The notes beneath the pieces were generated by a model. The model had not been told where the DNA came from, searched no databases, and saw only the letters and a list, made by a program, of their open reading frames with translations. This document shows positions 19,999 through 41,703 of a DNA stretch of 64,000 nucleotides, piece after piece (within the stretch, counting starts at the first letter, position 1; each line of letters opens with the position of its first letter). Origin of the DNA: Escherichia phage UB. Where the stretch lies: the sequence record MH383160; one strand, written 5' to 3'. A program made the translations under genes and the position numbers.

Positions 19999-20070
19999 TA
20001 AAGGGCCGGAGAATCGAACTCCGATTGGATTCTTAGAAGGAATCTGTTTTATCCATTAAACTAGCCCCTC
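19999..20070 (-). tRNA. tRNA-Arg (anticodon TCT)
   Basis: D-arm GTTT-AATGGATA-AAAC; anticodon stem GATTC/GAATC with loop CTTCTAA; T-arm CGGAG-TTCGATT-CTCCG; acceptor has two G-U pairs. Confidence 0.65.
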
Positions 20071-20080
20071 AGTACTAATA

Positions 20081-20108
20081 ATTATATCACATCTTTATGT
20101 GATGTCCA
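20081..20108 (-). promoter_or_regulatory. Sigma-70-type promoter upstream of tRNA-Arg (TGGACA-N16-TATAAT, extended -10)
   Basis: Minus-strand TGTGATATAAT lies 11 nt upstream of the tRNA 5' end. Confidence 0.45.
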
Positions 20109-20673: not shown

Positions 20674-20874
20674 TTAGTTTTGATTATTTGACTTTCTAAA
20701 TGCCAGTTCGCATATAAACCAGGGTTTTCTGGTATCCAAAACATATGACCTGAAAAGATTTTCATCTCTTAATATATCATAATGTACCTGACGAATGCCA
20801 TTCCCAAAGCAGTCATGTTCTTTATGCTGTTTGGACATCCATTCTTCGTGTGTCATTTTATGTATCCAGTACAA
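20674..20874 (-). CDS. Small protein, MTHEEWM family (66 aa)
   Basis: MYWIHKMTHEEWMSKQHKEHDCFGNGIRQVHYDILRD...WFICELAFR. Confidence 0.5.
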   Translation of the reverse strand: MYWIHKMTHEEWMSKQHKEHDCFGNGIRQVHYDILRDENLFRSYVLDTRKPWFICELAFRKSNNQN

Positions 20875-21091
20875 TTAAGTGCTGCATCTCTTCTTTTGTA
20901 AAGAAAGCACTGTCATGAACAATAGAACCAGTCTTATCAACTACATAGTACAGGTTTCCATATTGTTGAACATCAATTCCGTCAATTTCAATTCGTGGAA
21001 AATTTTGGACAATACAGTCTGCACCGAAAACCTCACCAAAAAAGTTTCCTGCTGGATTGATAATGACTTTCATATTAAATCACCTTTATTG

Positions 21092-21193
<102 letters not shown>

Positions 21194-21198
21194 TCTTA

Positions 21199-21393
21199 CT
21201 ATTTTTTGTCTCTAATAGCAAGCTCGTAGATGAACCAGTGGTTGGAATCTTCGTCCAAAACCAATGATTCGAACGTTTTTTTATCGTTCAAAACATCATA
21301 ATGGCCTTGGCGTATACCAAATCCAAAATGATCATGTTTATATTTTAGTGACTCTATCCATTCTTCATGTGTCATTTTATGTATCCAGTTCAA
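21199..21393 (-). CDS. Small protein, MTHEEWM family (64 aa)
   Basis: MNWIHKMTHEEWIESLKYKHDHFGFGIRQGHYDVLND...WFIYELAIRDKK. Confidence 0.5.
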   Translation of the reverse strand: MNWIHKMTHEEWIESLKYKHDHFGFGIRQGHYDVLNDKKTFESLVLDEDSNHWFIYELAIRDKK

Positions 21394-21455
21394 TTAAGTG
21401 TTTCATTTATTCTTCTGTAAAGAAAGCATTGCAATGGACAATGGAAAAGGTTATT

Positions 21456-21633
21456 ATATTTTTTTGTCTCTAACCGCAAGCTCATAGATGAACCAACGAT
21501 TTCCATTCTCATCTAGTACATATGATTCGAACTTATATTTGTCTCGTAAAATATCGAAATGACCATCAATAAATCCATTTCCAAACTGGTCATAACGTTT
21601 TTTCATCATTGCCATCCATTCTTCATGTGTCAT
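21456..21633 (-). CDS. Small protein, MTHEEWM family (59 aa)
   Basis: Manual translation MTHEEWMAMMKKRYDQFGNGFIDGHFDILRDKYKFESYVLDENGNRWFIYELAVRDKKI. Confidence 0.4.
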
Positions 21634-23716
21634 CTCTTAATATCCATAACGGCTATACTAAAATATGTACCAAAATCATCACAATTGATAATGTTGTTAT
21701 AGTACTCAATTGGGTTACGCAATGATATATACAATTCAAGCTTAAAATAGTATATATCTGCTGCATTTATATTATAGTGTAGATTAAACCACTCATCAAA
21801 TGTCTTAGGCTGCATTATATTTATCTTTATAAAAATCCATGATTTTAGTCAACAGTACTGCAATCGTATAATCTAAATCAGGATAAAGTAAATTGTACTG
21901 AAATTCTTCCTCAACACTATAGTTAGTGGTACAGTACTGGTAATCTTTATAACCTATTGAAAAATAATTCGGATACAATGTACAACGAAAGCGATAAGCT
22001 TCATCTGTCATATAATCATTGTATTCAACACAGAAGTATAGTGATTTTGAATTTAATTCGATAAGCTCAACGAATCCATCAGGTAATGAATGGTTATAAA
22101 TTACTGAATCTTCATTAAACCATTCATAGTATTTTTCCAAAAAATCACTAATGGATACATCCAGACTTTGTATAGGTGGAGTTATGATAATTTGAACTTC
22201 TTTATTCATTTCGACCCCTTACTATATTTCACGTATGGGCTATCATACAGATCATAACTTTTTTGTGCACGTTCTTTTCGGCGTTCATACATGATTCTAT
22301 CATACTCTTTAGCTTTCTGATTTGCTTCATTATACAATTTTAAAATTAGCAAAAATGCATCAAGATCGGGATAGTTTACTGGATTGATAGTACTCAGCAT
22401 AAATCGTTCTTCTTCAGTTCTAGCTAAGTCAAATTCATACTTAATAGTTTTATACCCACTCCATTTATATATATGCGTTACTTTATTAGTAAGTACATTA
22501 TATTCAACGAAGTCAGTACTACCATCAAGTACACGAGTAATCTTAATAGATGTACCAATGACAATCTGCACAGAACTCATTTCTGAAGTTTTAAAGTAAT
22601 AAATGTTATTACGGCGAAGATTAACTTCTCGATCTCCAATGCGAACATGCTTAATAACTTCCATTAATGGTTCTGGGACACCACGAATCGGCATGTTAGT
22701 ATTCCTCAATAACGGTTAGGAATCTATCCCAACCAGTATAAGTGAAATGATCAAAGTATTGTTTTTCGCCACCTACCATATATACTTCAATTAAACCGTG
22801 GTCGAAATAATTTTTTGGTTTTTTAACTTCAGTTACGATTGCTTTATGTCTGAAACCATTATAATCAGTATATGTTACAATATCGTGAATTTTGATATTA
22901 TCAGGTGTATAAGTGTTGGCGTTATTATTGAGAACATGAAGATGATGGTCTACGATTTCTTTACTGGAAATTACTCCAAATATGTTACCAGAAAATACTT
23001 TATTACCATTACAGGTCAATGCCCAGCCATCACCAACTTCAATAGATTCAAATACATAATGTGTGCAAATTTTAGATACATCTGACGTATCCCAGTAATC
23101 ACCATCAAGATTGGTGAATTTATAAACAGTTTTGAGTTTTTCGCCATCAAATGAAAGCAATGATACTCCGATAACAACCGTTCCGTCTTTAAGAATAATA
23201 TTAAATTTATTATTTGTATTAAAGTATGCTTCTGACTCATATGTGTTGAATTTAATAAAGTTCATATGTTCTCCTTAGTAAGTCATAGTATTATATCAGA
23301 GTTTCATTGCACTTACCAGCATGTTTTCATAACTTCTGTGATGTAAATCATTTTATCTTTTAGTGTGTAAGGGATGCAAATTTCACCTGGGCTTAACGTT
23401 GTGTTCTTTTGAAACTCATCTTCTTCGGAATCAGCCAGGTAAAATGGGTGTGTCACAAAGGTATCATCAACTGGACGATTATGTGGTTTCATTAATGCAT
23501 CATGATTGACAAAATAATAAGCATCAATATCAGGACGGAAATACAAACAATCAACCTTAATGCACGGGTGTAACCATAAGGACAAAGAATATGTTATTTG
23601 GTTACCAATTTGTCTTGGGCCTGATGCAATTGCATTGATGTTATTTTTATCTTGTACCATTTCATAAATGAAATCTATCATTTCGTGTAGTTCTGATTCA
23701 GTCATTTTATTTCCTT

Positions 23717-23746
23717 AAAAAAATACCCAGTACTTGACTGGGTATT
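23717..23746 (-). terminator. Intrinsic terminator (minus strand)
   Basis: Hairpin ACCCAGT-ACTTG-ACTGGGT flanked by an A/T run. Confidence 0.5.
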
Positions 23747-25086
23747 TACAAAGTAACGTTTAATCAGATTTCTTTTCGTAATCTGTAAAAACAGTCAGGA
23801 TTGTTGCACATAGTGAATCAACTACTGATGCACGTGTGTTATCAAGGTCTTTAGCTAGTGCTTGAATCTCTTGAAGTTTTACTACTAAGTCGATTTTTTG
23901 ATTACTCATTACTTCTCCTATTGGATGTTTTTTAGATATTAATTTTTATACCACTAAGGTCTAGAACTTTTTTATTAGATACTGTTTCTGATTCTAATTT
24001 AGTTTCTTTTACCTCAGTGTTAATATTTACGTCATCTTTGAGAATATCAGGGATAATACCATGTTGAATATCATCGTACATAGAAACAACGGTTTCGGCA
24101 CAAGATAACATTTCACGAACTTTGTACTGATAACCCTGTGGTAACTCATTGATGATTTCCATAATATCTAGTAATTTAGTTTGGACATCAATAAGAATTT
24201 TTCTTGATTTTTCTGGTTCCATTACTCCAACTCCACAACATTACTTTTTTTGGATTTAATCACTGATGGTGGCTCATTAACGCTTGTTTGACCACGAAGT
24301 GATTTTTCCAACGCAATGATGCGTTTTAAAGTTTTTATTGATGGTCGCTTCTTCGTCAACTCAGCTTTTGCTTCTGAATAATATTTTCTTACATATCCAT
24401 AGGCATAATATTTTGAACCAATGAAAATTTCAGCAACTACTGGATTTGAGTATTGTGTATCAATTCCATCTAGATCCGTGTCTACCGAGTAGAATGAAAT
24501 ATTTGTATCACATGCTGAAATTTTAGCCACCAAAAGATTTGCATCGAACTTATCTAAAATTAGAGAAATTGTTTTTTCGGCATCAGCACTATATGGCATA
24601 GCAGACATTAAAAGTTGGAATGTCTTAAAGTACTTACTTCCACTAATCATGGTATTGAAAATCAATCCAATGGTGATTAATGCAAGTGTACCAATACACA
24701 CAAACAAAAACCAATATTCAACACTCATTTATAAATCCTCTTACTTTATATGATTAAAATGCCCCATCAAAAATGATGAGGCGGTAAGATAAATTACTTA
24801 CGATTTGCTTTACGCAGTTCAGATAGTTCTTCTTGAAGACTTTTCTTCCATGCAATCAAGTGAGCAAAACGGATTGGCCTTGCACCAGTACCGTGGAATA
24901 CTGCTAGAGCTTCTTCTGCTTGATGAATCTGGAATTGAATGTAGTTCACAGTGCGGTCGAAGTCGGTGATATCTAGTACTTGTGCGTTAGTTTCTTTAGC
25001 CATTTTAATACCCTTTTATTTCTTTTTTATGAAAAACCCTCATCATTGAGGAATGGTTTGCATTTTAATATCTGCCGATAACAAAC

Positions 25087-25114
25087 ATTATATCACAATA
25101 TCTGTTCTTGTCCA
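25087..25114 (-). promoter_or_regulatory. Sigma-70-type promoter (TGGACA-N16-TATAAT, extended -10)
   Basis: Minus-strand TTGGACA...TGTGATATAAT upstream of 24794..25003. Confidence 0.5.
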
Positions 25115-25963
25115 ATTTTTAATTATTAGAAAGAACAATTTTTGAAACTGGTAAATCTGTATCATTTACACGTTGTTCATTATATCCATTCTGTACAAGA
25201 ATGTCAATAACTTTAGACTTATCAATTGTAAATGATTCTAACATATCATATCGGTAATAACCAATAGTCTGACTGAACTCATATTTTCCTGGCTGTTGAC
25301 GACAACACGTATTTGTTTCAGCCATAATCTTATTGATTAGGTAATATGTTTCAGTACTATCAATATTTGGAATATAGATCTTATCATCAAAATGAATTAC
25401 TTCATGTTTATTCATAGAGTGATTCAATCTCCGCTTTAAGAATGGAAATGATCTCTTTCTGAAGGCCAGTAATTTCACTGTTCAAAGATGATAGTCGCTT
25501 CGATAATGCCATGAATTGCTTTGCATCTTCTTTAGAACGGTCATTTCGTACTTTATCAGAACTCCAGTTAGCATATGATTGCTCATCTTTCCTGTTAAGG
25601 ATATCCCAGTCTAAACGTACTAGTTTACGTTCTTTCTTCAGTTCGCTTAAGCGAGATTTCATTTCGTCTTTAGTCATTAGATTGTTCCTTTCATGAAGTC
25701 TGGAATAACGATTACGATAGGAGGATTATACTCTACATAACCATTTTTTGTCAATAGACTTTTAATATCTGAAATCACATTATCATGCTGTTCAATATCT
25801 TTATCACAAAAGATTTCCAATTCTTTCTGAAACGGTTTTTTAACCGAGATGTTTTGAGTCAGTGTTTGGATTCGCTGTAACATATCAATTGGATCTGGAC
25901 TGAACTCATTACCAACATAAAGAGTACCAGATGCATCTTTTTCTAGCAAGACTTCTAAAATTT

Positions 25964-26800
25964 TCATTTCGTATCCTTCAATTTACTAAAGTTTTCTCGT
26001 GTAAATCCAGGAACTGGAAAATATACATCACAGTCAACATCAGGATTCATAATTACCATGTCATTACATATTATATCACGAATTTTACTGCCGTCCACGA
26101 TTTTTTGCATTAAATCATTCCATTTTTTACGAGAAATAACGAATGTACTAATTATACATAAATCATGTCCACGTTTTGAAATATATCCTAGTACTTCATT
26201 ATCGTAAACAACACGTATGGTAACTTTTCCAATTGTAACCCCTCTTACTGGATTAATACTAGTATCTTCAAAAATTAATTCTAATTTAAGTTTACCATTC
26301 GAAATAAGTGATGAAGTATATCTAGAAACCATTTTATCAATTTCTTGAGTCAAATCATCTCTATTTAGATATTCAAATACAGAATAAGTTAATTCGTCTG
26401 CACCTAGTTCTTGGATAGTTGGAAGCTGTGCCACCATATCCAAAGATACAGGTTCGATATATATTCTTTCAATATCAGAAGATTGTACAAATAGACAACC
26501 ATCAGGTGTCGTATCTCTAACAATTTCGGCATAATATGTATAAAGATAAAAAACATTAGACTCTGATGAGTCAGTTTCTACCCAAATCTCAGATTGTTTC
26601 ATTTCATCTTTATGAAGAATTCGTTGAGTAAATCCTATGTAAAAACCAAGATATAAATCATCATCAGTTTCAAACGGATTAAACATCAAATACGGATATT
26701 TGTCAAGGTACTCATTGAACTTACGCTGTACATCTCTATCACAATCCATGATATACTTTAGGAATTCAGAAATGATTATTTTTTCTAATGACATAATCAA
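25964..26800 (-). CDS. Hypothetical protein (278 aa)
   Basis: Long ORF; no recognisable motif. Confidence 0.5.
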   Translation of the reverse strand: MIMSLEKIIISEFLKYIMDCDRDVQRKFNEYLDKYPYLMFNPFETDDDLYLGFYIGFTQRILHKDEMKQSEIWVETDSSESNVFYLYTYYAEIVRDTTPDGCLFVQSSDIERIYIEPVSLDMVAQLPTIQELGADELTYSVFEYLNRDDLTQEIDKMVSRYTSSLISNGKLKLELIFEDTSINPVRGVTIGKVTIRVVYDNEVLGYISKRGHDLCIISTFVISRKKWNDLMQKIVDGSKIRDIICNDMVIMNPDVDCDVYFPVPGFTRENFSKLKDTK

Positions 26801-26980
26801 TCCTCAAGATGCATGTAGTACATAAACATCGCCAACCATATAAAAAACCCGAAACAACGAAGTAAAATATCAATTGTTGGATCTGTCCCACCATTAACTT
26901 GGTAAACGATTACTGGGATTAAAGCAATAGTAATAGATACAGCACATAAGATGAATGCAACAAACACCTCAAACATAAAC

Positions 26981-27553
26981 TTAATCGTTTCCATTATTAT
27001 CCTTCAATGTGTAGTGTAGTACATCTAAAAAGTTATACATTGATTCATTACGCACAACCTTGATTGTTAAATTACGACAACCCAACATACGTTTGAGGCG
27101 ACGCTTCACCGCAGTTAAATCATGTGTACTATTCGTATACAGACCATTAACCTGACCTGGAACAGTTGGCACATGAAGAATGTAATCATAATTCATTAGT
27201 AAGCGTTGATTATATTTCTTTAATGCTTGCTTGTATTCTGAAATATTTTCAAAGAATGTACAATAACGGTCGTAACGATTCATTTTATTCAAAATTGAAA
27301 TACGAAAAGCGTTACCACTATTCCAATCATCTTCAGTTGGGTTTGGGTTGATATGTGCCATGTTAGCTGTACTGTACCCACCACTTGTGAAAACTTCAGA
27401 ATATCCATTCTCAAAAACATACAATGTTGCTTTGTGGCCTCTGAATTTTTTACGGTACTTTGACAGTACTTGAATGTGATTACGCTTGGACTTGTACATC
27501 TCGTAACCTTCATAATCTGAACTGAATTCACAAATTTTATCAACACCAGCCAT
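26981..27553 (-). CDS. Hypothetical protein (190 aa)
   Basis: ORF with GAGGA RBS and consensus promoter immediately upstream. Confidence 0.5.
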   Translation of the reverse strand: MAGVDKICEFSSDYEGYEMYKSKRNHIQVLSKYRKKFRGHKATLYVFENGYSEVFTSGGYSTANMAHINPNPTEDDWNSGNAFRISILNKMNRYDRYCTFFENISEYKQALKKYNQRLLMNYDYILHVPTVPGQVNGLYTNSTHDLTAVKRRLKRMLGCRNLTIKVVRNESMYNFLDVLHYTLKDNNGND

Positions 27554-27585
27554 TTCGTATATCCTCGTTTAATTAATATAGGAGT

Positions 27586-27614
27586 ATTATACATACTCCA
27601 TTTTCATGTGTCAA
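27586..27614 (-). promoter_or_regulatory. Consensus sigma-70 promoter (TTGACA-N17-TATAAT)
   Basis: Both hexamers are perfect consensus on the minus strand. Confidence 0.6.
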
Positions 27615-28084
27615 GCTTTATAATACGGAAGACTTTTTACTAAAGATTCAGACGTATTATTTTTTACCCATGTACTACCGTTGTCATTAGATACGTATCC
27701 AGTACCATTAATAAATTTACGCATAATACCAGTAAAAATATTAGTATACACCATTACTCAGTATCCTTTGGTTTAGAATGTAAACCATACTTTTCATCAT
27801 AACGATCATAGGTAGTACCATTAGTACTAGCTTTGATGCTTTCAGTACGATTGATTGGTTCAATCTTAACACCACGATAACCAATCTCTTCTTTAAATTG
27901 TTCCCATGATTCACGTAGACTCATTTTAGCCCCTTTTGTTATTTCATACACTCACGTAGGTCAATCTTTTCTACTGACCCACCGAGTACTAGATAGTGAA
28001 AATTAGAATCTTTGTTTGCCATATTCAAAAGATCTGCTTTCTGTTGAAGCGTAAAGCGTGAAGTACTGTTACGTACTGGCATAG

Positions 28085-28528
28085 TTACTCCTTAAAGTAG
28101 ATATCACGAATTTGTTTAATCATCTCTAACTCTTGAAGTCCTATCATACCAAAGTCTTCTTGTATTGTCAACTGCTGAAAGTACATTTCTTCTAAATTAT
28201 TGTACGGAATCTCAACAAGATTCAAAGGCTCACTTTCCACACGATAAATTGTATCTTGTACATCATGTTTTTCGATATGAATACTAAATGTATCTTTTTG
28301 AATTCTAAATTTATAAAATGTTTGATTTGTTGTAAACAAACCAACTTTAGGATGGAATCCCATTTGAATACACAAACAATCTTCATCCTTATATTTCAAG
28401 TATATAGCTTTTGACGTTGCTAGTACTTTAGATTTTGGGAAATAAAAATCACCCATCAGCTTCTGACGTTTCCAGTCCTCATATACAACTGGATGCTTAA
28501 CCTTCTTCAATTGGTGCAGTACTGTCAT
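28085..28528 (-). CDS. Member of C-terminal EExFFQxS-motif paralogue family
   Basis: C-terminus LEEMYFQQLTIQEDFGMIGLQELEMI. Confidence 0.55.
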   Translation of the reverse strand: MTVLHQLKKVKHPVVYEDWKRQKLMGDFYFPKSKVLATSKAIYLKYKDEDCLCIQMGFHPKVGLFTTNQTFYKFRIQKDTFSIHIEKHDVQDTIYRVESEPLNLVEIPYNNLEEMYFQQLTIQEDFGMIGLQELEMIKQIRDIYFKE

Positions 28529-28907
28529 AGTTTTTTCCAGTCCAATGAATCGAAATCGATTTGTTCAGGATTATCAACAGCGACAACTCGTGCATTATGA
28601 AGAGTTTCAAAGTAGCCGTTCCACGGTGTACGTACTGGAATTTTTTCATCTCCAATTTTTACAAAGAAAGAGAATTCACATGACATTGGATCAAACCATT
28701 CTTTATGTTTGGCTTCATCGATTATTGTCGCACGTTCGTTACTATATGCATCATCGAGTTTCTTAAAGAATACCCAATGCTCTTTCAAAGACTGTAATGC
28801 TACAACTGCCTCATCCTTTGATTCCCATTGAACATCCAATGTATTGGTAACTGAATCTTCAGTTTCAGTGTCCCCTGTAGTGTAATGTACTTCAATGCTG
28901 TATTTCA

Positions 28908-29363
28908 TTAATCATCGCCTTTTAGTAATTTACAAATTTCAATCATATGATAATAACATGTATTCCAAAATTGTCCATTAGTACTTCCAACATCATGCAC
29001 AGTACTTTGTTGGAAAACATATTCATCGTTGAACATCATTTTAATATCATCAATGTAAAATTCTGGTTTTGAATCATTATTGTATTCAATACTCGTTTCA
29101 CCATCTGGATCAAGTGAAATTGATGATATGTCGTGAATTCCTCTCGGATTTGTTGGATAAATTCTCAACGTAAGAGGATAGAAGTCTGGATCGGTTTCAT
29201 AAGTATATTCGATTATGTAATAACCATCACCAGTAATTGATTGATATTTAAATGTAGTTTCAATTGAATTTGAGATGTTAAATCCCAGTTTCTTTATCTC
29301 ATCTACATGAGATAATATTTTATGTAAAGTTCCTAAAACATGAATCAAATTATCAATTTTCAT
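28908..29363 (-). CDS. Member of C-terminal EExFFQxS-motif paralogue family
   Basis: C-terminus NDEYVFQQSTVHDVGSTNGQFW. Confidence 0.55.
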   Translation of the reverse strand: MKIDNLIHVLGTLHKILSHVDEIKKLGFNISNSIETTFKYQSITGDGYYIIEYTYETDPDFYPLTLRIYPTNPRGIHDISSISLDPDGETSIEYNNDSKPEFYIDDIKMMFNDEYVFQQSTVHDVGSTNGQFWNTCYYHMIEICKLLKGDD

Positions 29364-29902
29364 TTACGAACCTTTGAAAAGTTTAGTTTAAAAGATTTAC
29401 CAAATTCCATTGTAGCTTTACCCAGATTGTTAATATTTTCCTTTAACATTTCTTGCATCTTATTCATACTTTCAATCCAAGCTTCTTCTTCGATACGAAG
29501 AATTGGTCGCAATCGTTCCTGAATATCGATAAAACGTGTATTGAGTTCTACTAATGATTCATATGTGAAATCTTTCATGTCGATAATAGTACTTCGTTGA
29601 AAGAATTCTTCTTCGGATAAATTACTTAAAATGATTTTATCACGACCAATAGATAATGTCAATTCATCATCTTTATTTTTTTTAATTACAATACTAACAG
29701 GTGTTTTTAATGTAATGCAAATATCATGATTATTAAATGTTTCAGTTTGGTTTGACATTCTGAATTGAAGTTTCCCAGATAAAGCATGTACTGGTGATGG
29801 TTTCTTTTTACCAGTAATAACATCTTCCCATGAATCGAGAATATTATTAATAATTTTAACATAAGGAATTGGCATATATGCACCTATGAAAAATCCACGC
29901 AA
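29360..29902 (-). CDS. Member of C-terminal EExFFQxS-motif paralogue family (with C-terminal extension)
   Basis: SEEEFFQRSTIIDMKDFTYESLVEL. Confidence 0.55.
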   Translation of the reverse strand: MRGFFIGAYMPIPYVKIINNILDSWEDVITGKKKPSPVHALSGKLQFRMSNQTETFNNHDICITLKTPVSIVIKKNKDDELTLSIGRDKIILSNLSEEEFFQRSTIIDMKDFTYESLVELNTRFIDIQERLRPILRIEEEAWIESMNKMQEMLKENINNLGKATMEFGKSFKLNFSKVRK

Positions 29903-30399
29903 TGCGTGGATTTGTAATTATTCAAGTATAGTAATTTCAATTAAACGAATTTCGATAAACTCGTTTTCAGTTTCCCATGACGTGCCAAATTTCTTTTCAA
30001 GTTCAGATTTCACATCACTTTTAAATTTTCCCATAGTATTAGGAATAATTTGTTTGGTTAATTTGTCGTAACCACAATAAAACATAGGTTTCTCCCTTCG
30101 AGATATTAGCTGAACAAAATCTTTTGGATATGCAGGTATGTTATGCATCACTTCATGAATACACTCAGTACTTGAATCTTGTACTTTGTACATTACATTA
30201 AGTTTACCTCTGAAATTTGCGGTCATATCAACAATAGTTCCTTTACCCGATTTAAGTAAAGTTCCATTCTTTGAATGAGAGCAATAAAATACCTCATCAC
30301 CAATATTAGGATAATACAAATTAAATTCTAATTCAGATTTTACAGCCAGCCGTTTGAAACTTTCTGTACGTTTTATATAAGTTTGGTATTTGTTTATGT

Positions 30400-31260
30400 T
30401 CAAAAGAATATCTCTCTTAGTAAATGTGATATAACTGGCATAGTCCATCCATTCCCAAGCATTTTGTATGCTTGTGTCTTACTAGACACTTTAAAGAAAT
30501 CTTCAGGAACACCCTGTAATTTACAACATTCTACTACACTTAAGTGTCTATAGTCAATATTTCTTTTGCCATTCTCTAATAGATATTGACGACTGATCAC
30601 TGGGTCACGAAACACCAATTGTCGTCTGGATTTATTAAAGTACTGGTTACAATCACCACCTTTAAAATAGTTAGCATCTATACAGTACGAAGCGGTTCTG
30701 TCAGTGTACCAACCATCTTCAATAATATCTTGAAGTTTAGGTGCATTGGATAATGCAGGTGGTATAAAAAGCTTATCAGTACTGTACCAGTAATATCTCT
30801 GCCTGAAGTGAGGCGTATAATGCTGGGAGTTTATCAGTACTGGCGTGATTCCTAAAATACTATTAATGTATTCTTTGAAATCTTCTTTCATTTTAACATT
30901 TTCAAACAGAAATTTCAAGTTAGGATTAAGACTTTTGATATGATCAAAAATTTCAACCATTACTAAAAATAACTGCCCACGTATATCATTTAAACCACCC
31001 TGTTTACCTGCAACTGACCAGGCTTGGCATGGGAAACCACCCATTAATAAATCTATTTTGTCCCACTCAATATCCCATTCTCTCCACTTAGTTACATCAC
31101 CCAATTGGATAATATCAGGAAAGTTAGATTGAGATTCAGCTATTGCGTACTTATCAATTTCGGATGAATAATATTTTTCAACTGGGATACCAGCATCTTG
31201 CAATGCCATATATCCCACACTCATTCCATTAAAAAGAGAAAGTACTCGGATAGGTTTCAT
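30400..31260 (-). CDS. DNA (cytosine-5)-methyltransferase (286 aa)
   Basis: Motif I-like LSLFNGMSVG; motif IV GGFPCQAWS; motif VI FLFENV; motif VIII-like QHYTPHFRQR; C-terminal LGNGW. Confidence 0.75.
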   Translation of the reverse strand: MKPIRVLSLFNGMSVGYMALQDAGIPVEKYYSSEIDKYAIAESQSNFPDIIQLGDVTKWREWDIEWDKIDLLMGGFPCQAWSVAGKQGGLNDIRGQLFLVMVEIFDHIKSLNPNLKFLFENVKMKEDFKEYINSILGITPVLINSQHYTPHFRQRYYWYSTDKLFIPPALSNAPKLQDIIEDGWYTDRTASYCIDANYFKGGDCNQYFNKSRRQLVFRDPVISRQYLLENGKRNIDYRHLSVVECCKLQGVPEDFFKVSSKTQAYKMLGNGWTMPVISHLLREIFF

Positions 31261-31917
31261 ATAAAATCCTTTTTATATTGTTAAGGTACTATAATATATT
31301 ATAGCATCTTATTTAGAAATCTTCCAAACTTTTTTCATCACACCATCGTGATGTACAGATGATTGCAGATGCCAGAATTGAAGCACTTGCACGTCCTCCA
31401 CCGAGTAAGTACTGGCTAATTACGCCAATCATATTGAACACTTTATCATACTCGGTTAGTTGTTCAAAACCTTTCTTCCAATGCTGATATTCTTCTTCTG
31501 TGACATTAAACTCACCATCAAGTTCCTTTAAAATCTTTTTAAGCACAGCACTATGTTCACTCATCATCATCTCCATATCGTTCGTCATAAAAATCATCAT
31601 CACGATCTAATGGTTCTTTTGGCTTTTCAGACATATATTTCCTCACATGGTAAAGGTATTATCACCATCCATATCTTCATCAGTTGCTTCAGCTAATGTC
31701 TTGATTGTAAGTAATCCACGCTTCACGTACAACATGAAGACCTTTTCATAATTACCAAACATAATCTCAGGTGACATGTAATTCTCTGTTACAATGACGA
31801 TTGGACGGCCCTGTGAAAGCATACGAAACATAGTACGATATTTGTCAAATGTGCGAAATTCATCCATGTTCATCATGTGGCGTTTACGAACTACTTTAGT
31901 CATCTTAATACCTTTAG

Positions 31918-32358
31918 TTAATTGAACTCTACTTCTGGATAATGATTATAGAACATCTCACGAACTGCGTCAAGATGTTCTTGAAATTGTTTTATATCTT
32001 CTAATGATGGTGCATCAATAACAGTACTAAGTTGAAACAACGATTCTTCTGTGTTATATAGTGACATATCAAATGAGTTATTGTTGTCATCAGTTATGAT
32101 ATTATCACAAATTTCGTATGTGTCAATACAAACATCATCAAGTGTTGTATTATCATATACAGTGTATACGAATACAAAAATAAAAGAAGAATGTTCTTTA
32201 CCATAACGCGGTGGGTCATATGTCACATAGCATTTGTGGTCAAATGTATCGAGTTCCATAGACACCACCCCAGCTTCACGATATTCATTAGTTTCACTGG
32301 TAAGATCCGGTATTGATGTTATCGAAAGTAAGTGGAGAAATTTACTTGGATTTAGCAT
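31918..32358 (-). CDS. Member of C-terminal EExFFQxS-motif paralogue family
   Basis: C-terminus TEESLFQLSTVIDAPSLEDIKQF. Confidence 0.55.
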   Translation of the reverse strand: MLNPSKFLHLLSITSIPDLTSETNEYREAGVVSMELDTFDHKCYVTYDPPRYGKEHSSFIFVFVYTVYDNTTLDDVCIDTYEICDNIITDDNNNSFDMSLYNTEESLFQLSTVIDAPSLEDIKQFQEHLDAVREMFYNHYPEVEFN

Positions 32359-32813
32359 TTCACCACCATTGGATTTTGCGACTGTATATTAAAAAGGGAT
32401 AATACAAAAGTACTCAATTTTTCGAAACAATCTACTAATACATTTAACTCATCATAACTAACACCAATTTCACGAATAAGCGATTGTTGAAAGAATCCTT
32501 CTTCGGTTAACGTTAAACTACTAACCTCAGTTATGTTATAATAACTTTGGGATGTTGTGGTTGATATTAGTTGTATTGCAATCGTATCTGATGTTGTGTT
32601 GTACAGATATAAATATTTTGTTTTTCTTTCCAATGGATCTATACATGAAAGATCGATCATGTCATAGGTTTTTCCAATAAAAATATTACAATCATCTGAC
32701 AATTCACAACAAATGCGTATATGTTCTTTCGGGTCATGAACACGTTGTGTGTCAAATTCACATGACATTGCAATTTCAAAATGATTTTTTATTTCGTCAA
32801 CATTCATCTGCAT
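32352..32813 (-). CDS. Member of C-terminal EExFFQxS-motif paralogue family
   Basis: TEEGFFQQSLIREIGVSYDELNVLV. Confidence 0.55.
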   Translation of the reverse strand: MQMNVDEIKNHFEIAMSCEFDTQRVHDPKEHIRICCELSDDCNIFIGKTYDMIDLSCIDPLERKTKYLYLYNTTSDTIAIQLISTTTSQSYYNITEVSSLTLTEEGFFQQSLIREIGVSYDELNVLVDCFEKLSTFVLSLFNIQSQNPMVVKC

Positions 32814-33181
32814 CCACCATTAATTCTTATATTTGTATAGTTTAATGCTTTTTTAATAATACCAATTTCTGTAATTCCTATTACATTTTTCTCAATCAAT
32901 GACAATTGGAATAGTTCCTCTTCGGAAATATCAATACTGTGGATTCTTGTACAATAATCGTTGAAGTCATATACATATCGTATTGTATAGTCGTTTATAG
33001 AAACTGATACAATTGCAATCCCATCATGGATGTAAGTTAGTTCATTTGAGTATCTATTAAAAATTAACCTATCTGGTGAACCTATTGGTAGTTGAAATGT
33101 ATTTCTAGTATCTTGAACAATAACAAAATCATCATCTATATTTTTACTCAGAACACCCAAAATATCATATATAGTAGTCAT
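32804..33181 (-). CDS. Member of C-terminal EExFFQxS-motif paralogue family
   Basis: SEEELFQLSLIEKNVIGITEIGII. Confidence 0.5.
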   Translation of the reverse strand: MTTIYDILGVLSKNIDDDFVIVQDTRNTFQLPIGSPDRLIFNRYSNELTYIHDGIAIVSVSINDYTIRYVYDFNDYCTRIHSIDISEEELFQLSLIEKNVIGITEIGIIKKALNYTNIRINGGCR

Positions 33182-33182
33182 G

Positions 33183-33587
33183 TTATTCTTTACCTTCAGC
33201 AGTTCTGATAATTTTCATAACTTCTCTGGATAGTGCGTATATTTTTTTATAGTACTCAAATGTAACTGAACCAAAATCATTAATAGTACTAGCCATGAAG
33301 AACGATTCTTCTGTATATAGTTCATTTGACAAAGCAACCAGTTCTTGGTGAAATTTTGCGTCCTTCCAATAACGAAATTCAAAAACAAATTGTCCGTCAT
33401 GACCGACTCTACAACATTCAGAACGATCACTGTCTACACAGCTAAACACAATATCCCTTTCAGAGTCGTACCAGATATTTCCAATATTTGTTTCAATAAC
33501 AGCATAATCAATTTTTTTAGAATTTGGAATTAAACCTTTTTTCACCAGCACTAAACTGGTATTATCAATATCTAGTAAACTTACCAT
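33183..33587 (-). CDS. Member of C-terminal EExFFQxS-motif paralogue family
   Basis: TEESFFMASTINDFGSVTFEYYKKI. Confidence 0.55.
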   Translation of the reverse strand: MVSLLDIDNTSLVLVKKGLIPNSKKIDYAVIETNIGNIWYDSERDIVFSCVDSDRSECCRVGHDGQFVFEFRYWKDAKFHQELVALSNELYTEESFFMASTINDFGSVTFEYYKKIYALSREVMKIIRTAEGKE

Positions 33588-33588
33588 A

Positions 33589-33999
33589 TCAATTCCCCAT
33601 TACTAAAGTGTTTTTAATCTCCAACAATTCACTATACATATTCTTCAATTGTAATATATCTTCAAAAGTAATACCACCAAGATCATCAACTAATGAACGT
33701 TGGAATAAAGATTCACTTGTTTGTAATGTATCTAAATCGGTGATTTTTAATAAAGAACTTGGATTAAGTGTTTCGACTAGTAGTATGTTTTTGTATGGTA
33801 CATATGTGATCTTGATGTTCTTTTTATAATTAATCTTATAAAATCGCATAATTGACGATTCATCACTTAGTTGGATAATTGGGTCGTCTTGTTCATTAGA
33901 CCACCATACAGTACTAGTCATATGATTGACGTGGTGGTTCAATTCTGATATGTCCAAATCTAAAAAATATTTTAGTTCATTGTGTAAATCTAAACTCAT
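33589..33999 (-). CDS. Member of C-terminal EExFFQxS-motif paralogue family
   Basis: SESLFQRSLVDDLGGITFEDILQL. Confidence 0.55.
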   Translation of the reverse strand: MSLDLHNELKYFLDLDISELNHHVNHMTSTVWWSNEQDDPIIQLSDESSIMRFYKINYKKNIKITYVPYKNILLVETLNPSSLLKITDLDTLQTSESLFQRSLVDDLGGITFEDILQLKNMYSELLEIKNTLVMGN

Positions 34000-34054
34000 A
34001 AATTTATCCTCAATGCAGCATCATCATGTATTGTAGGATAAACCCACAATAATG

Positions 34055-34450
34055 TCAAGATGTGAAATAATTATACCAGTAATATAGTTCTTTTAATTCT
34101 TCAGTACTGAACAATACTTCTTCTATTGTAGATTGTTGAAAGTGATATTCATCATTTAGATACATAGAAATATTACTATATACTTTCCTATTGTATTGAC
34201 ATAAAAAAGAAGTTTTTTGATTAATGTATTCAGTAAATGTTAATTTATCTAACTCAATATCGAATGATAATTTAATAATATGACTATTATCATTTACATA
34301 CATTAGTTTCTTTGAAAAATGATCAATTGTAATATATTCTTTATGAGAGAACTGAAATATATTATTAAATTTATTACCATTTGTGCTTCTAAATTTTTCA
34401 AGGTAATAAGAAAGTGGTTTAATTATTGAAGTTCCAATATTGTTCTTCAT
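34055..34450 (-). CDS. Member of C-terminal EExFFQxS-motif paralogue family
   Basis: NDEYHFQQSTIEEVLFSTEELKEL. Confidence 0.5.
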   Translation of the reverse strand: MKNNIGTSIIKPLSYYLEKFRSTNGNKFNNIFQFSHKEYITIDHFSKKLMYVNDNSHIIKLSFDIELDKLTFTEYINQKTSFLCQYNRKVYSNISMYLNDEYHFQQSTIEEVLFSTEELKELYYWYNYFTS

Positions 34451-34470
34451 ATATCCTCAATTTTAGATAA

Positions 34471-34496
34471 GAAAAATGCCCCGAAGATCGGGGCAG
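34471..34496 (-). terminator. Intrinsic terminator (minus strand)
   Basis: Hairpin TGCCCCGA-AGA-TCGGGGCA with flanking A5 (T5 on the minus strand). Confidence 0.55.
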
Positions 34497-34610
34497 TACT
34501 AAAATGATTTTGTACCAAAAGGGGAATAAGAACAAAATGAAAATATAATAACGCATCATTATTATGTAAGGGAGGAAAGTAACATGATATGTTAACCATT
34601 TCTGGTATAT

Positions 34611-35162
34611 TTATTTATCATTTAATTCTTTAAGTTGGGTTTGTATATCTTTAGTTATATTTCGAATTTTCTTAAAGCAATAAACACTATCGTCCAATTC
34701 GATTTTAAGTTCATGTGTAAATGCATACAGAAGTTCAGCAAATACTAAATCTTGACGCATCCAGTTTCCATCTTTATATAAAGTCATTACACAATATGGG
34801 CATTCACTATTAGAAGTTTGCTTTCCAATAAAAACACTTTGAATTGATTCATGCTTAAAGCCAATAAAACTTTCATTTATTTTTTTAATTTCAGTACTGA
34901 TATCGAATTTAGCACTGGTGTTGATTGCAAAAATTTTATTCCCACTTTCATCAGTATTGATATTGAGTTCAATATCACTACCTAGTTTACGTACTGCTAG
35001 AGTATAAAGAAGTAATTCATACATGTCGTAACTTGTTACATTACCATTTGGTGCAATTACATCAACACTAACACCGTGCATTTTTACTTCTGTATTAAAT
35101 CCATCTTTATCAGAAAGAAAATCAGTGATTTGCTTTGTAAGGATTTTAATTTGGTCTATCAT
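34611..35162 (-). CDS. Hypothetical protein (183 aa)
   Basis: ORF; no recognisable motif. Confidence 0.5.
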   Translation of the reverse strand: MIDQIKILTKQITDFLSDKDGFNTEVKMHGVSVDVIAPNGNVTSYDMYELLLYTLAVRKLGSDIELNINTDESGNKIFAINTSAKFDISTEIKKINESFIGFKHESIQSVFIGKQTSNSECPYCVMTLYKDGNWMRQDLVFAELLYAFTHELKIELDDSVYCFKKIRNITKDIQTQLKELNDK

Positions 35163-35215
35163 ATTTCATTTCCTTATGTGATAAAAGCCTCCATAATGGA
35201 GGCTTTTGTATTTAC

Positions 35216-35644
35216 TTAGAGAGATTCTTCGTATTCAGCAACAATCCCAACCATTTCATTAATGAACTTGATGTGAGAATGTGTCACTGTACGGAAATCG
35301 TAAACAAGTGACTGTTGGAAAAATACATCTTCATCAAGAGAACCATCAAAGTTCAAATCAATGTTTTCATCGTCATTGCTTGGTGCAACTTTAATATTCA
35401 GAAGATTTTCATCAACTGCAAGTTTTACAACACAACCCAGTGCAATGGCAAGAACATATGCTGGTTTCTTAGCTTTTTCATTACGGAATGGTGCACGTAG
35501 AGCACAAAAAGTACTGCTAATCTCATCATTCGGTTCTTTGTATTTAACATTGACCATTAGTTCTTCGATTTTGACGCTCTCAATAACACGACCAGTTTCT
35601 GGAGCGAAGAAAGAATGTTCACGGATAGTTTGTTCGATATTCAT
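35216..35644 (-). CDS. Member of C-terminal EExFFQxS-motif paralogue family
   Basis: DEDVFFQQSLVYDFRTVTHSHIKFI. Confidence 0.55.
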   Translation of the reverse strand: MNIEQTIREHSFFAPETGRVIESVKIEELMVNVKYKEPNDEISSTFCALRAPFRNEKAKKPAYVLAIALGCVVKLAVDENLLNIKVAPSNDDENIDLNFDGSLDEDVFFQQSLVYDFRTVTHSHIKFINEMVGIVAEYEESL

Positions 35645-36963
35645 ATATTATTCCTTATTTAGATTGCTAAAAATACGAAGATTGCGGTTTGCTTTAAACT
35701 GTTTCAAATCACCAAATCTATCATCAACGATGAAAGTTGCTGATTTCTTTGACTGACATATTGTACAAATCAACATACCTTGTATTGTATACTCAGTTGA
35801 GCAATTTGTACAGTACTTTTTTTCATAAAGTTCAGTACTCATAAAACCTTCACATCAGTACGTTTTTCTCTTTGTTCTTTTTTAACCTCATCAGTTCTAG
35901 TATCTTCTAATTGTAACACAACTTCTTTTAGAATGTCAACATCAATTGTTGCTTCTACATATTGATAGTCGTTTACACCAAAAACATACTTTACTGCAAC
36001 CCATACACGGTTATACCATTTTAAAAAAGGATTTAAACGCATACTTATCAGACATTGACCAAGTTTATCATCTCCATATTCCTCTGTCAAGTCAAATTGT
36101 GCAATGTGAACGCAATGCTCCATTTTATCGCCACAAGAACAACGTAAAATATACTCTTTACTATCTTCACTCATACTGGATAAGCCTTTAAAAATTGTTT
36201 AAGAACTCCAAACTTAGATGAATCGTAATCGTATTGATAGTTAAGCTCTCGCTTATCATTCATACGATACACCATATGAAAATTTGGATAACCAATTCTA
36301 ACAGGTTTTTTAGGATTAGCAAGTAAAATTGCCCATTCTTTTACAGGAAATACGTTTTCAGACAGCATTTTGATATTTGTTTCAAAATACTTCATGGCTT
36401 GCTTTCCGTGCTTGTAATCTTCTTCACTAATCTCTTGACAATCAATTCTATGTGTTTCGGTATCTAACACCCATTGTTGATCTTCGGTATATAAATCAAT
36501 TACATCATCAATAGTATAACTATCAGGTAAATCATAAAATACCCAATGAGATAAACCAGAACTTACACCAATTCGAATTTTAAAGAACTTCATTCTTTAT
36601 CACCTTTTACATAATTATAACACACGACACAGTGAATTACAAGAAGAATTATTTCCACAATATTAAGAGACAATACATGACTCTGCGGTGTGAAAAGTGC
36701 CAATAACAACATTATAGCAGGTATTGTGAATATTTTCCAAGTTTTTTTCATTTTATTCCTTTGTATATGCATATGGTAAAAATAAAACCTCTGCATTAGG
36801 AATGCATTGTGCCAATCCTTCAACAATAGATTTGTTTTTATTACATTGCCAAACTTTAGTAATTTTATGTCTAAATACTTTTTTATCAACAACAATCCAG
36901 TACATGTCCATTTTAACAGTACTGTTATCAGATGGTGTTAGTAAAGTATCGATGTCATATGTA

Positions 36964-37245
36964 TCAAAGATTTTGTCGTTCATATAATCTCCTAATAAAA
37001 TATTCTCGATTCTCTCTTATATACCCAGATACACAGTTAGTTGTGGCTTGGTTAGTGAATGAAATCTCACTATTGGACACGCCATTTGCATCACACAAAG
37101 GACATATTCCCATGTACTTGGGGGTCGGGTAGGTGTCCAATTTGTATTTTCCATTACATACCATGTACTGCTGTGGCAATACATCTAATATTATTTCATA
37201 TTCTTCATCAAACACCTTGAAGCATACCCAACATTTACCCATCAT
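36964..37245 (-). CDS. Small zinc-ribbon-like protein (93 aa)
   Basis: CWVC ... CPLC cysteine pairs. Confidence 0.4.
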   Translation of the reverse strand: MMGKCWVCFKVFDEEYEIILDVLPQQYMVCNGKYKLDTYPTPKYMGICPLCDANGVSNSEISFTNQATTNCVSGYIRENREYFIRRLYERQNL

Positions 37246-37726
37246 AGTTTTCCTTTAACACAGTTCTTATATATTCGAATGTTTTAACAAACCAATCATG
37301 TTCGTCGGATACATCTACAACTTTACCACCATATACATAGTAATGGTAAAAAGGCAACTTGCTTTTTCTTAATCTTTCGGCTAACTCTGGATTTTGAATT
37401 ATCTTAGCACAAATAGCATCTTGAATAATAGAAATACAATCATCCGTCATTTCAATTCGATCATGCATATATTTGTTAGCGGCTGCTTTTGCTGCTGCAC
37501 CAGATACTTTTCTAAGGTCATCATGTTTTTGCCCAGTTAAAAACCAAAAGTAAAATGTTTCAACTGAAGGGAACCAACCATATGGTTCAAGTGTGAAGCT
37601 ATGCGAAGAAAAGTTAGATAGATCTCTACCTAACTTCGTTCTGGCTTTACTATAAATGTTAATATGTCGGTATCCATCATCAGTAGGGTCAATGAAGTTA
37701 AATGACTCTTCTGGGAATTCAAACAT
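37235..37726 (-). CDS. NADAR (YbiA/DUF1768)-like protein (163 aa)
   Basis: LSNFSSHSF...SVETFYFWFLTGQ...VSGAAAKAAANK...NPELAERL matches the E. coli YbiA pattern FSNF...SEHYFQAQKF...NPEL. Confidence 0.55.
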   Translation of the reverse strand: MFEFPEESFNFIDPTDDGYRHINIYSKARTKLGRDLSNFSSHSFTLEPYGWFPSVETFYFWFLTGQKHDDLRKVSGAAAKAAANKYMHDRIEMTDDCISIIQDAICAKIIQNPELAERLRKSKLPFYHYYVYGGKVVDVSDEHDWFVKTFEYIRTVLKENYDG

Positions 37727-39285
37727 AATTATTCTTCTTCTCCTGAAGGTGTTCCACGTAGTTTATCAAAATCAACCCAAATACCATGCTGGTTTTTAAA
37801 TCGACATTTCTCATAGTACCAACTATAGTCCGTTTCAACACCTTGTGAAATAGAACGCACACTACAATCATACATATTATATAAATGTTCCCTGACAATA
37901 TATGTATTAATCAGTACAACGAATAATACAATAATACCACAGATTTTAGGATGGTCCATAATCAAGTCAAGTACTGATCTAGTTTCAGAACTATCAATCT
38001 TACTTCTACAAATAGTAACAATTTTAAGAACAGCGAATGATACCAGTAATGAAATTACAATAACACTTAAATAAATTAGCATAAATTACACTCCTACACC
38101 AAAACGTAAAATAATATTATTAACAAACACTAAATCAAAAGGTGACTTTGGTTCAGATACTGAGTACTGAAATGATTCTGCTGCGAAATTTTCTCTATTA
38201 TACCATGTTTCAGAATTTATTAGCATTTTTTTATCACCAATCGTCACTGAATGTAATGGAACATTTGAAGAAGAATTTATTGAATATGCATTAAGATTAC
38301 CGTTTTCATCTAATGTGATACTAAGATAATATCTTTTCTCAATATCAGGAATAAGTTCTTTTGTATACGAATAGATTGAATCAACCCATTCATCATGTAC
38401 ATTTTCTGCACCAACCAGGTGTCCGAATGACAAATTACGTTTAACTGGCTTTGTTCCAGGACGAGTTAGAATGAATTGTTTTGTTAAGTAAAAATTATTA
38501 TGTTTTACTTCAATATTAACATTTTTAAAATTCACCACTTTATCATATACATTTCGAAAAACTGTTATATCCCAAGTACTAATTTCATCCATAATACTTA
38601 TCACCAGTTCTTCTAGTTCTTGTATAAATGGCAAATCATCTTGATGAAATCTAGTCATGGTTTTCATATACCTTTTTCAAATTCATAATTTCAAGAATGC
38701 TGTATTCTTTATCACCAATCAAATCTTCAGTGAATGCAGTGGGGTCGGCATCGCTATACAACTTACCATTGATGATAACACAACCATTACTAAGATACAA
38801 TGCACTCATGATCTGTTGTCCTTCTTTCACATTTTGTGCTAGACCTGTATTTGTTACTACAAATCCATTTGTTGCTAATGATGATGTTAGTTCTGACCAT
38901 TCAACTGATATTAAGTCGCGATAGTCCTTAGATACTTTTATATTCACAATACAAGCAACTCGTTTAATAGGTGGAGTGCTAATCGTGTACATTTGTGGTT
39001 GTTGGTAATTAGAGTTGTATGTTTGTGGTGTTTTAACAGCAGTTCCTGAATTTTGAGTTGATTTGGTAATTACTGGTTCTACACTGGGGACTGTTGTTCT
39101 TAGTGATATAATACGTCCAGTTTCATCCAATTTAAGGACTAAACGATGAGTTTCATCCTCAGAGTAATAGGGAAACAAGCCACCGGAATTCATATTTTGA
39201 AGCATTTTAATTAATTCATAAGTATTTTTTAAAAACATAGTACACCCCATAGAAAAGGGGAGTACAAAGTACTCCCAACATTTAA

Positions 39286-40934: not shown

Positions 40935-41624
40935 TTAATCCATTTTAAGCTTGTTTAGACAGAATGAAATCTGGATTGCTTCACGTGCTGCATCAAATAG
41001 TGGATGATGTAACTCCAACCCATTAATCCCACACGTATTTGCATATGTGATAAATTTATCCAACTGTACCGAAACGATTTCATCCATTTCAATACGAGAT
41101 TCATCATTCAATAAACGTTTCAATGTGCGTGCATTTTCAGGTGCATCATACTTCCACAACTCACCAGCGTTCATTAGTTTTAAATGGTTTGCTTGTAAAA
41201 TGCTACAATCGAAGTTACATCCGTTACCCCAGACTGAATGAGGAACTTCTTCGCCATAATCATTGTAACGTAATTCTTTCCAGAAATCAACAATACTACT
41301 GTATGCAAAAAATCGTCGTGATTGACCATTCGGTCCATACAGTTCAGGTGCTTTGAGTTTCATAGTACTGGCAACTTCAGCATATGCATTAGGGTATTCT
41401 TTCTGACATGTATTCATCCAAAAATCCATTGCACCTGCGTCTGATTTTAAACCAGTTGTAACTTGATCCTGGTATGGTAATTTAATATATAAGAACTGAC
41501 GAATGTCATTTTCAGGTTTACTTGGAACTACTACTGCTGCGTAATTTGGGATAATAATATCATAACCGGAAAGTTCAGGTGTTCCAAGAGCTTCAATATC
41601 AACACTAATATGACGACGTTTCAT
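40935..41624 (-). CDS. dexA: DEDDh 3'-5' exonuclease, DexA-like (229 aa)
   Basis: Exo I ISVDIEALGT; Exo III HHPLFDAAREA; size matches T4 DexA. Confidence 0.65.
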   Translation of the reverse strand: MKRRHISVDIEALGTPELSGYDIIIPNYAAVVVPSKPENDIRQFLYIKLPYQDQVTTGLKSDAGAMDFWMNTCQKEYPNAYAEVASTMKLKAPELYGPNGQSRRFFAYSSIVDFWKELRYNDYGEEVPHSVWGNGCNFDCSILQANHLKLMNAGELWKYDAPENARTLKRLLNDESRIEMDEIVSVQLDKFITYANTCGINGLELHHPLFDAAREAIQISFCLNKLKMD

Positions 41625-41703
41625 AAGTTAGTTCCTTATCTGTACATTAAAAAGAGTGCGTTTTCAATAAGATTATATTAAAAACGCACTCATATGTCAA
41701 CTA

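Follow-up and report, generated by a model that had tools for sequence, protein, structure and literature searches.

A large, divergent clade of NADAR-superfamily proteins in jumbo phages, with a candidate role in ADP-ribose conflict

A divergent NADAR-superfamily protein in a jumbo coliphage

The window analysed here, a 64,000-nucleotide stretch of Escherichia phage UB (MH383160), comes from a 121Q/PBECO4-type jumbo coliphage (Asteriusvirus). Over 5 kb, Escherichia phages JP4 and SP27 match it at 99.7% identity; for 121Q, which has a genome of about 350 kb, the figure is 98.3%. An initial annotation of this sequence placed a NADAR-like open reading frame (ORF) at 37235..37726, and the ORF exists exactly there, with 163 codons on the minus strand. 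The gene is a member of a long, tightly packed array of co-directional genes: its ATG lies 1 nt beyond the stop codon of the gene before it (37729..38082), it shares its final 11 nt with the beginning of the gene that follows (36964..37245), and its GC content is 0.343 against 0.331 for the window. The 121Q orthologue is gp73 (YP_009101667), annotated as a "hypothetical protein", and all database names across the 90% cluster of the window protein are "hypothetical" or "uncharacterised". The same cluster contains QAY00367.1 (94% identity), which Iyer et al. 2021 (PMC7824862) cite as their example of a jumbo-phage NADAR, predicted to degrade soluble ADP-ribose signals or toxins. The identity of this cluster as NADAR is therefore already known, as is the use of phage NADARs in counter-defence; what is new here is the size of the clade, its altered active site, its association with an ADP-ribosylglycohydrolase (ARH) and the refutation of a proposed link to zinc-ribbon proteins.

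The initial annotation described a YbiA/NADAR pattern and named a hidden Markov model (HMM) search against PF08719 as a check. That search returned no match at E<=1, and nor did any other Pfam model, PF08010 included; the window protein was likewise without a match in NCBIfam and among PDB sequences (phmmer), and its two PHROGs families, phrog_652 and phrog_11222, are both labelled "unknown function". The pattern does emerge from family profiles and from structure, but it is weaker than was implied, all direct scans being empty.

A profile built from 28 aligned homologues, none with a precomputed NADAR domain, matched only NADAR chains in the PDB, namely 8BAU (the P. nicotianae NADAR, 6e-5), 2B3W (YbiA, 3.8e-4) and 8BAT (the G. 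lovleyi NADAR, 0.61). A second family alignment, comprising 174 domains from the best profile-search matches at no more than 50% mutual identity, was compared by hhalign with alignments of YbiA (probability 96.8%) and T4 gp30.3 (probability 98.1%, E 9e-14). When home-made HMMs of these two proteins were run against all six-frame ORFs of the window, the NADAR-like ORF came top for both (E 0.0035 for YbiA and 0.009 for gp30.3), and no second NADAR was found among these ORFs. Foldseek against BFVD gave uncharacterised or "DprA-like" phage proteins first, followed by giant-virus "NADAR domain" proteins, and the window protein has the alpha+beta NADAR fold of a helical core flanked by small beta-hairpins. 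Scores of individual relatives against the existing models were below the cut-offs, with 12.7 bits against PF08719 for P0027 (cut-off 35.1) and 20-27 bits against PF08010 for P0029 and P0103 (cut-off 36). Because of the family-profile, hhalign, reciprocal HMM and Foldseek results the superfamily assignment is solid: by fold and profile-profile comparison the window protein does belong to the NADAR superfamily, though it is highly divergent, and both its fold and its enzyme class are very probably those of NADARs.

Conserved residues and comparison with characterised NADARs

The key residues of the NADARs of P. nicotianae (PnNADAR) and E. coli C7 are E43/E88, K50/K95 and E125/D171, the last of which is replaced by His in phage NADARs (PMC11543638, PMC12945103). 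The Lys seven positions after the catalytic Glu (Glu+7) touches both phosphate and adenine, and most of the superfamily retains it (PMC11543638); it is required for efficient hydrolysis of guanine-ADP-ribose (G-ADPr) by the E. coli C7 enzyme, and the T4 NADAR AdfN (gp30.3) needs both E36 and K43 for full activity (PMC11825919). ADP is contacted in PnNADAR by K75, G78, R79, Y84, D86, W89, R93, D130 and W133 (PMC11543638, PMC12945103), and antitoxin function in vivo depends on the Lys at K75 (K115 in E. coli C7), which is dispensable for catalysis (PMC11543638).

Residues conserved in 95% or more of the 174-domain family alignment are D17, G18, H21, N23, Y25, S26, G33, L36, N38, G50, F52, E56, G76, K80, K108, L124, H128, Y129, Y130 and W145, all of which are carried by the window protein (motif coordinates and equivalences in table 1). 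The N-terminal DGYRHINIYSK motif has no counterpart in the gp30.3 consensus, and its resemblance to YbiA is limited to the I-N-x-Y-S part. In the C-terminal region the pyrophosphate-binding D-x-Y-W-G motif (D130 and W133 in PnNADAR) is not kept and an HYYVYGGKVV beta-hairpin stands in its place; T4 gp30.3, an active enzyme, likewise lacks the D-x-Y-W-G motif.

T4 gp30.3/AdfN (PF08010, Phage_30_3), an anti-DarTG1 DNA ADP-ribosylglycohydrolase, is the best profile-profile match and the nearest characterised relative. Like the window protein it is a small single-domain phage protein with LSNF and G-x-x-A-K motifs; its E36 aligns with E56 and its H123, the His that replaces the catalytic acid, with H128. 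T4 30.3 lies near an ATP-dependent DNA ligase gene, as do clade relatives in 7 of the 49 IMG/VR locus groups described below. The differences are that K43, needed for full activity of gp30.3, is L63 in the window protein, that the latter has no PF08010 match, that the clade adds the invariant N-terminal DG..HIN.YS motif and the C-terminal HYYVYGGK beta-hairpin, and that the isoelectric point (pI) of the window protein is acidic at 5.66 (gp30.3 8.97, YbiA 9.55, family median 7.9).

YbiA (2B3W, PF08719) shares with the family I-N-x-Y-S, (F/L)SNF, the catalytic Glu and, in most family members, a K/R-x-G-R region, whereas the window protein is without the Glu+7 Lys and the E-H-T-x-N-D-x-Y-W-G-D-G-G motif. 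YbiA acts in cells, where it has a part in hydrolysing the N-glycosides of riboflavin intermediates, a role that is unlikely in a phage. Relative to the DarT1-associated NADARs (DarG1; 8BAT, E. coli C7) and 8BAU, E56 corresponds to E43/E88 and K80 to K75/K115, but K50/K95 is absent and the catalytic acid E125 (D171 in E. coli C7) is aligned to a His; the window protein also lacks the N-terminal DarG1 extension, and no cognate DarT is found among the matches listed for the window. The jumbo-phage NADARs of Iyer et al. (PMC7824862, PMC9503650) show fusions to DUF4326, SLOG/YAcAr and Macro domains as in the clade studied here. The assignment in these papers is computational and at superfamily level, and the missing Lys, the N-terminal motif and the size of the clade are not described in the available text.

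The initial annotation regarded NADARs as enzymes that reverse guanine ADP-ribosylation, and this is borne out by published work (PMC11543638), four of four tested NADAR families hydrolysing G-ADPr on both DNA and RNA (PMC11125620, PMC12945103). The phage NADARs AdfN of T4, Bas32 and Bas60 were shown in 2025 to neutralise DarTG1; a conserved-domain search had identified those of Bas32 and Bas60, which are canonical (PMC11825919). The three AdfN proteins are of the gp30.3 type or canonical and do not belong to the clade of the window protein, on which we found nothing in the literature following AdfN.

Table 1. Coordinates of the NADAR-like gene, its conserved positions and associated features (window positions, except for the ARH genes, which lie in other phages)
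Feature	Position	Strand	Remarks
NADAR-like coding sequence	37235..37726	minus	ATG to TAA, 163 aa; divergent phage-type NADAR-superfamily domain
N-terminal motif DGYRHINIYSK, residues 17-27	37646..37678	minus	clade-specific; from conservation table and alignments
L36-S37-N38-F39, NADAR signature	37610..37621	minus	YbiA FSNF, PnNADAR LSNF, T4 gp30.3 LSNF
E56	37559..37561	minus	kept 174/174; aligns with catalytic Glu (PnNADAR E43, E. coli C7 E88, T4 AdfN E36)
L63 (Glu+7 position)	37538..37540	minus	Lys in NADARs (Pn K50, C7 K95, T4 K43)
K80	37487..37489	minus	kept 172/174; aligns with PnNADAR K75, E. coli C7 K115
H128-Y129-Y130	37337..37345	minus	strand after last core helix; H128 kept 172/174, aligns with T4 gp30.3 H123
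93-aa CxxC...CxxC ORF	36964..37245	minus	overlaps stop of NADAR-like gene by 11 nt
Upstream gene, 117 aa	37729..38082	minus	membrane-like, phrog_8041; homologues directly upstream in RaK2, SE_PL and BF
Rv2179c-like 3'-5' exoribonuclease	40935..41624	minus	PF16473, E 2e-8; first gene of syntenic block
Sigma-70 consensus TTGACA-17-TATAAT	41672..41700	minus	12/12, upstream of exoribonuclease gene; consensus match only
ARH genes	L010 5111-6076; L011 7074-8003; Erwinia phage Hallingskeid 118267-119175		SE_PL-type, Eneladusvirus and Erwinia jumbo phages

Distribution and domain fusions

Searching 1.84 billion representatives with a profile yielded 2,092 relatives. Clustered at 50% identity, the clade comprises 643 clusters with E<=1e-30 and 1,630 with E<=1e-10, and it is found in 537 phage records. 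The clade is large, almost entirely viral and matched by no Pfam, NCBIfam or annotated PHROG model. The fusion partners seen across 73 multidomain relatives are DUF4326 (24), YAcAr SLOG (18), DprA-type SLOG (10), Macro (6), DUF488-N3a (6) and, more rarely, an Rv2179c-like exoribonuclease (2) or a canonical NADAR (1). The last is P0103, a metagenomic protein of 1415 aa with a canonical NADAR (PF08719) at residues 10-143, a divergent NADAR-like domain at about 548-698 and DUF4326 at 1185-1274. Two tandem NADAR-like paralogues, arranged head to tail with an overlap of a few bases, were observed in four IMG/VR loci (L043, L044, L045 and L047).

Gene neighbourhood

The NADAR-like gene is the last gene of a block conserved in RaK2, SE_PL and Serratia phage BF, in the order exoribonuclease, 364-aa protein, LemA-like virion protein, three small genes and NADAR-like gene. 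The gene had been placed in an accessory block, a description that suits the variable downstream side but not the gene itself, which closes the syntenic block and matches the window in GC content; an accessory island is thus rejected in part. The block may have an early promoter in the sigma-70 consensus that precedes the exoribonuclease gene, and terminator-like hairpins lie at 39276-39258 and 34495-34477, signals that together hint at early transcription of the block. A further hairpin with a 16-bp stem followed by a T-run, at 41691..41654 on the minus strand, overlaps the sigma-70 consensus.

The Pfam matches listed for the second half of the window cover 25 of 36 families. No ADP-ribosyltransferase (ART), DarT, Macro, SLOG, DUF4326, ARH or Nudix domain is among the matches listed for the window, none of these matches places a KptA/Tpt1, RtcB or Pnkp gene near the NADAR-like gene, and its immediate neighbours have no Pfam match. 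Functional support had also been drawn from two small zinc-ribbon neighbours. Both ORFs exist, each with two CxxC pairs, but a homologue of the adjacent 93-aa ORF is missing from the orthologous loci of RaK2, SE_PL and Serratia BF; because this ORF is not conserved with the NADAR-like gene, these neighbours lend no functional support, and a NADAR and zinc-ribbon partnership is rejected. The other protein, of 64 aa (35648..35842), has four Cys that are conserved in RaK2 and SE_PL, and its gene lies several genes away. In RaK2 the gene directly following the NADAR-like gene is a homologue of window gene 36753..36983.

In SE_PL, Serratia BF and Erwinia phage Hallingskeid, the NADAR-like gene is followed 0.6-2.6 kb downstream by an ARH gene (PF03747, E about 1e-66 to 1e-70 for the two copies scanned). 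No 121Q-type phage with ARH is among the matches listed (40 of 51 records), and the downstream side of 121Q-type phages holds small ORFs, the 93-aa CxxC protein among them, in place of ARH.

The neighbours in 49 dereplicated IMG/VR locus groups include TelA (8), ATP-dependent DNA ligase (7), ARH (5), RNA ligase (3), SIR2 (3), phosphoribosyl pyrophosphate (PRPP) synthetase (3) and ThyX (3). There is no universal neighbour across these groups; the commonest neighbour cluster occurs in 10 of the 49, and its representative resembles the 37729..38082 gene in size and position. In one metagenomic locus (L006) an ART (PF03496) is adjacent to and convergent with the NADAR-like gene. Cellular genomes yielded only 12 loci in 185,579 species genomes, all phage-like in appearance, with neither an adjacent ART nor a toxin-antitoxin-like context seen in the 12; neighbours there are DUF488-N3a (2), NadR-like AAA_28 (2) and Thg1 (1).

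The arrangement is tight in a Robinsoniella peoriensis contig (L093, 5030-6861), where a Thg1-like 3'-5' nucleotidyltransferase, the NADAR-like protein and DUF488-N3a are encoded as a trio that hints at a link to RNA-end repair. In another cellular locus, L095, a DUF488-N3a gene directly follows the NADAR-like gene, and in two unrelated contigs of metagenome-assembled genomes (L094, 5399-5956; L096, 5464-5997) a gene for AAA_28, similar to the NadR ribosylnicotinamide kinase, is directly upstream. The NAD+/ADP-ribose context of relatives fits an ADP-ribose-processing role. A 121Q-type genome may also encode an NAD+-consuming enzyme outside the window, because QAY00582.1, cited as a jumbo-phage SIR2 in section 3.4.8 of PMC7824862, belongs to the same accession series as QAY00367.1.

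Proposed function and alternatives

The window protein is most likely an ADP-ribose N-glycosidase that serves the phage in NAD+/ADP-ribose conflict with the host. We predict that its target is an ADP-ribose adduct, whose N-glycosidic bond it would cut at C1'' of the distal ribose, with E56 and H128 flanking that sugar as in other NADARs, and that it is probably produced early, from a co-directional operon starting at the exoribonuclease gene. Since every tested NADAR family cleaves G-ADPr, the leading candidate substrate would be guanine-N2-ADP-ribose that DarT1-like toxins of the host write onto phage DNA or RNA; the protein would then be an AdfN-like counter-defence enzyme. By analogy with characterised NADARs, nucleic-acid G-ADPr and an anti-DarTG1 activity are possible but doubtful. 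As a whole, the explanation of the gene as a small single-domain NADAR enzyme with AdfN-like counter-defence as its leading candidate role is tentative, falling a little short of probable.

Several findings weigh against this explanation, beginning with the empty Pfam scan. Of the conserved catalytic residues invoked by the initial annotation, E56 and H128 are kept, but the Lys at Glu+7, one of two superfamily-wide residues, is missing from the whole clade, the position being L in 42, S in 41 and G in 40 of the 174 domains. The ADP contacts R79, Y84, W89, R93, D130 and W133 of PnNADAR have no conserved equivalent in the window protein, and the family G-R/K motif (G78-R79 in PnNADAR) reads A83-N84 in the 121Q/RaK2 subclade. 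Because E56 and H128 are near-invariant and the Glu+7 Lys, D-x-Y-W-G and G-R/K positions are changed, the clade thus appears to have kept the ribose-flanking Glu/His pair and remodelled the ADP-binding half. The comparison by hhalign with YbiA puts H128 on the His of V-E-H, beside the Glu; as this is a sequence alignment only, we infer the spatial equivalence of H128 to the catalytic acid. The acidic pI (5.7, against 9.0 for basic T4 gp30.3) is weak evidence against a DNA substrate, and the fusion partners DUF4326/DUF488, SLOG and Macro suit DNA repair no better than they do the metabolism of small-molecule ADP-ribose. The presence of both NADAR types in the single polypeptide of P0103 suggests that they have different specificities. 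The anti-defence role proposed in the initial annotation is plausible by analogy, and it is weakened by the missing Lys and the acidic surface.

The same enzyme class could instead act on a soluble ADP-ribose (ADPr) derivative, a host immune signal or toxin, as in the role put forward in PMC7824862 and PMC9503650. Candidates are a cyclic ADP-ribose isomer, an ADPr-base conjugate, or ADPr-1''P or ADPr>P precursors, on which the relatives would work jointly with phosphatase-like DUF4326/DUF488, SLOG and Macro domains. This agrees with the fusions to DUF4326, SLOG (28 in all), Macro and DUF488-N3a, with the DUF488-N3a genes directly downstream in L093 and L095 and the NadR-like AAA_28 genes upstream in L094 and L096, with PRPP synthetase and SIR2 neighbours, and with the pairing of a canonical and a divergent domain in P0103; the absence of the Lys and other residues that face ADP or DNA, the acidic pI and the action of YbiA on small-molecule N-glycosides point the same way. 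Nevertheless, the published NADAR work compared here shows no degradation of an immune signalling molecule by a NADAR, G-ADPr on DNA and RNA is cleaved by every tested family, the Lys tied to in-vivo antitoxin function has an invariant counterpart in K80, and the enzyme that recurs beside the gene in the closest jumbo phages is ARH, whose substrates are macromolecular adducts. We regard a soluble substrate as somewhat unlikely. A related proposal, which we consider unlikely, is that the clade acts on a substrate that no characterised NADAR handles, either another base- or amino-acid-ADPr linkage or an ADPr-derived immune signal, because it has rebuilt the ADP-binding half and gained the D-G-x-x-H-I-N-x-Y-S motif while keeping the Glu/His pair.

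Instead of countering an ADP-ribosylating toxin, the protein could process ADP-ribose by-products or adducts that arise in NAD+-dependent RNA repair, for instance when tRNA ends are healed following an attack by anticodon nucleases. This would be consistent with the Thg1-like, NADAR-like and DUF488-N3a trio in L093, the T4-type RNA ligase neighbours in 3 of the 49 locus groups, the Rv2179c-like exoribonuclease with its synteny across RaK2, SE_PL and BF and its fusions in two relatives, the tRNA gene cluster some 16 kb away in the window, and the association of NADARs with RNA repair noted in PMC9503650. Such neighbours occur in a minority of loci only, the DNA ligase association could equally mean DNA repair, and KptA/Tpt1, RtcB and Pnkp were not found near the gene among the matches listed for the window, so that this role has a low probability. 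Reversal or limiting of marks made by the phage's own ARTs, as a self-immunity or timing device and not as counter-defence, is more improbable again. T4 alt does lie about 3 kb from 30.3, and T4-like NADARs are early genes expressed along with ARTs according to PMC9503650, but an adjacent ART was seen at the single locus L006, no ART domain is among the Pfam matches listed for the 64-kb window, and phage ARTs of the Alt/Mod type act on arginine in proteins, a modification that NADARs are not known to remove. The missing conserved Lys and the absence of most residues that contact ADP, with decay of the G-R motif in the 121Q/RaK2 subclade, would also be expected of a catalytically dead NADAR fold that binds an ADP-ribose-related ligand or a protein partner. 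We consider this highly improbable, given that the catalytic positions E56 and H128 and 18 others are near-invariant over the 174 domains and that T4 gp30.3, with the same Glu/His pair, is active.

If the predicted ADP-ribose N-glycosidase is active, 121Q/PBECO4-type jumbo phages, which are therapeutic candidates, and several hundred other large phages would carry an unannotated ADP-ribose-removing enzyme, changing predictions of which NAD+/ADP-ribose defences they overcome (DarTG1-like toxins and TIR/SIR2-type signalling). An unfamiliar substrate, if true, would represent a new and widespread anti-defence activity of large phages. Standard annotation (Pfam, NCBIfam and PHROGs) misses the whole clade, which a dedicated profile would annotate, and the missing Lys makes the clade a natural test of the residues that NADAR catalysis requires.

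Other features of the window

Six tRNA genes (Thr, Asn, Met, Ser, Arg and Gly) are found at 16129..21171 on the minus strand, among small ORFs and an HNH/NUMOD4 endonuclease. A homologue of IF-3 is located at about 59303..59806 on the minus strand, with Pfam IF3_N and IF3_C matches and coordinates taken from the JP4 "translation initiation factor". A C-5 cytosine DNA methylase (E 7.5e-38) lies at 30400..31260 on the minus strand, again with coordinates from the JP4 annotation, and an ORF with matches to sigma-70 regions 3 and 4 is present somewhere within 107..35644.

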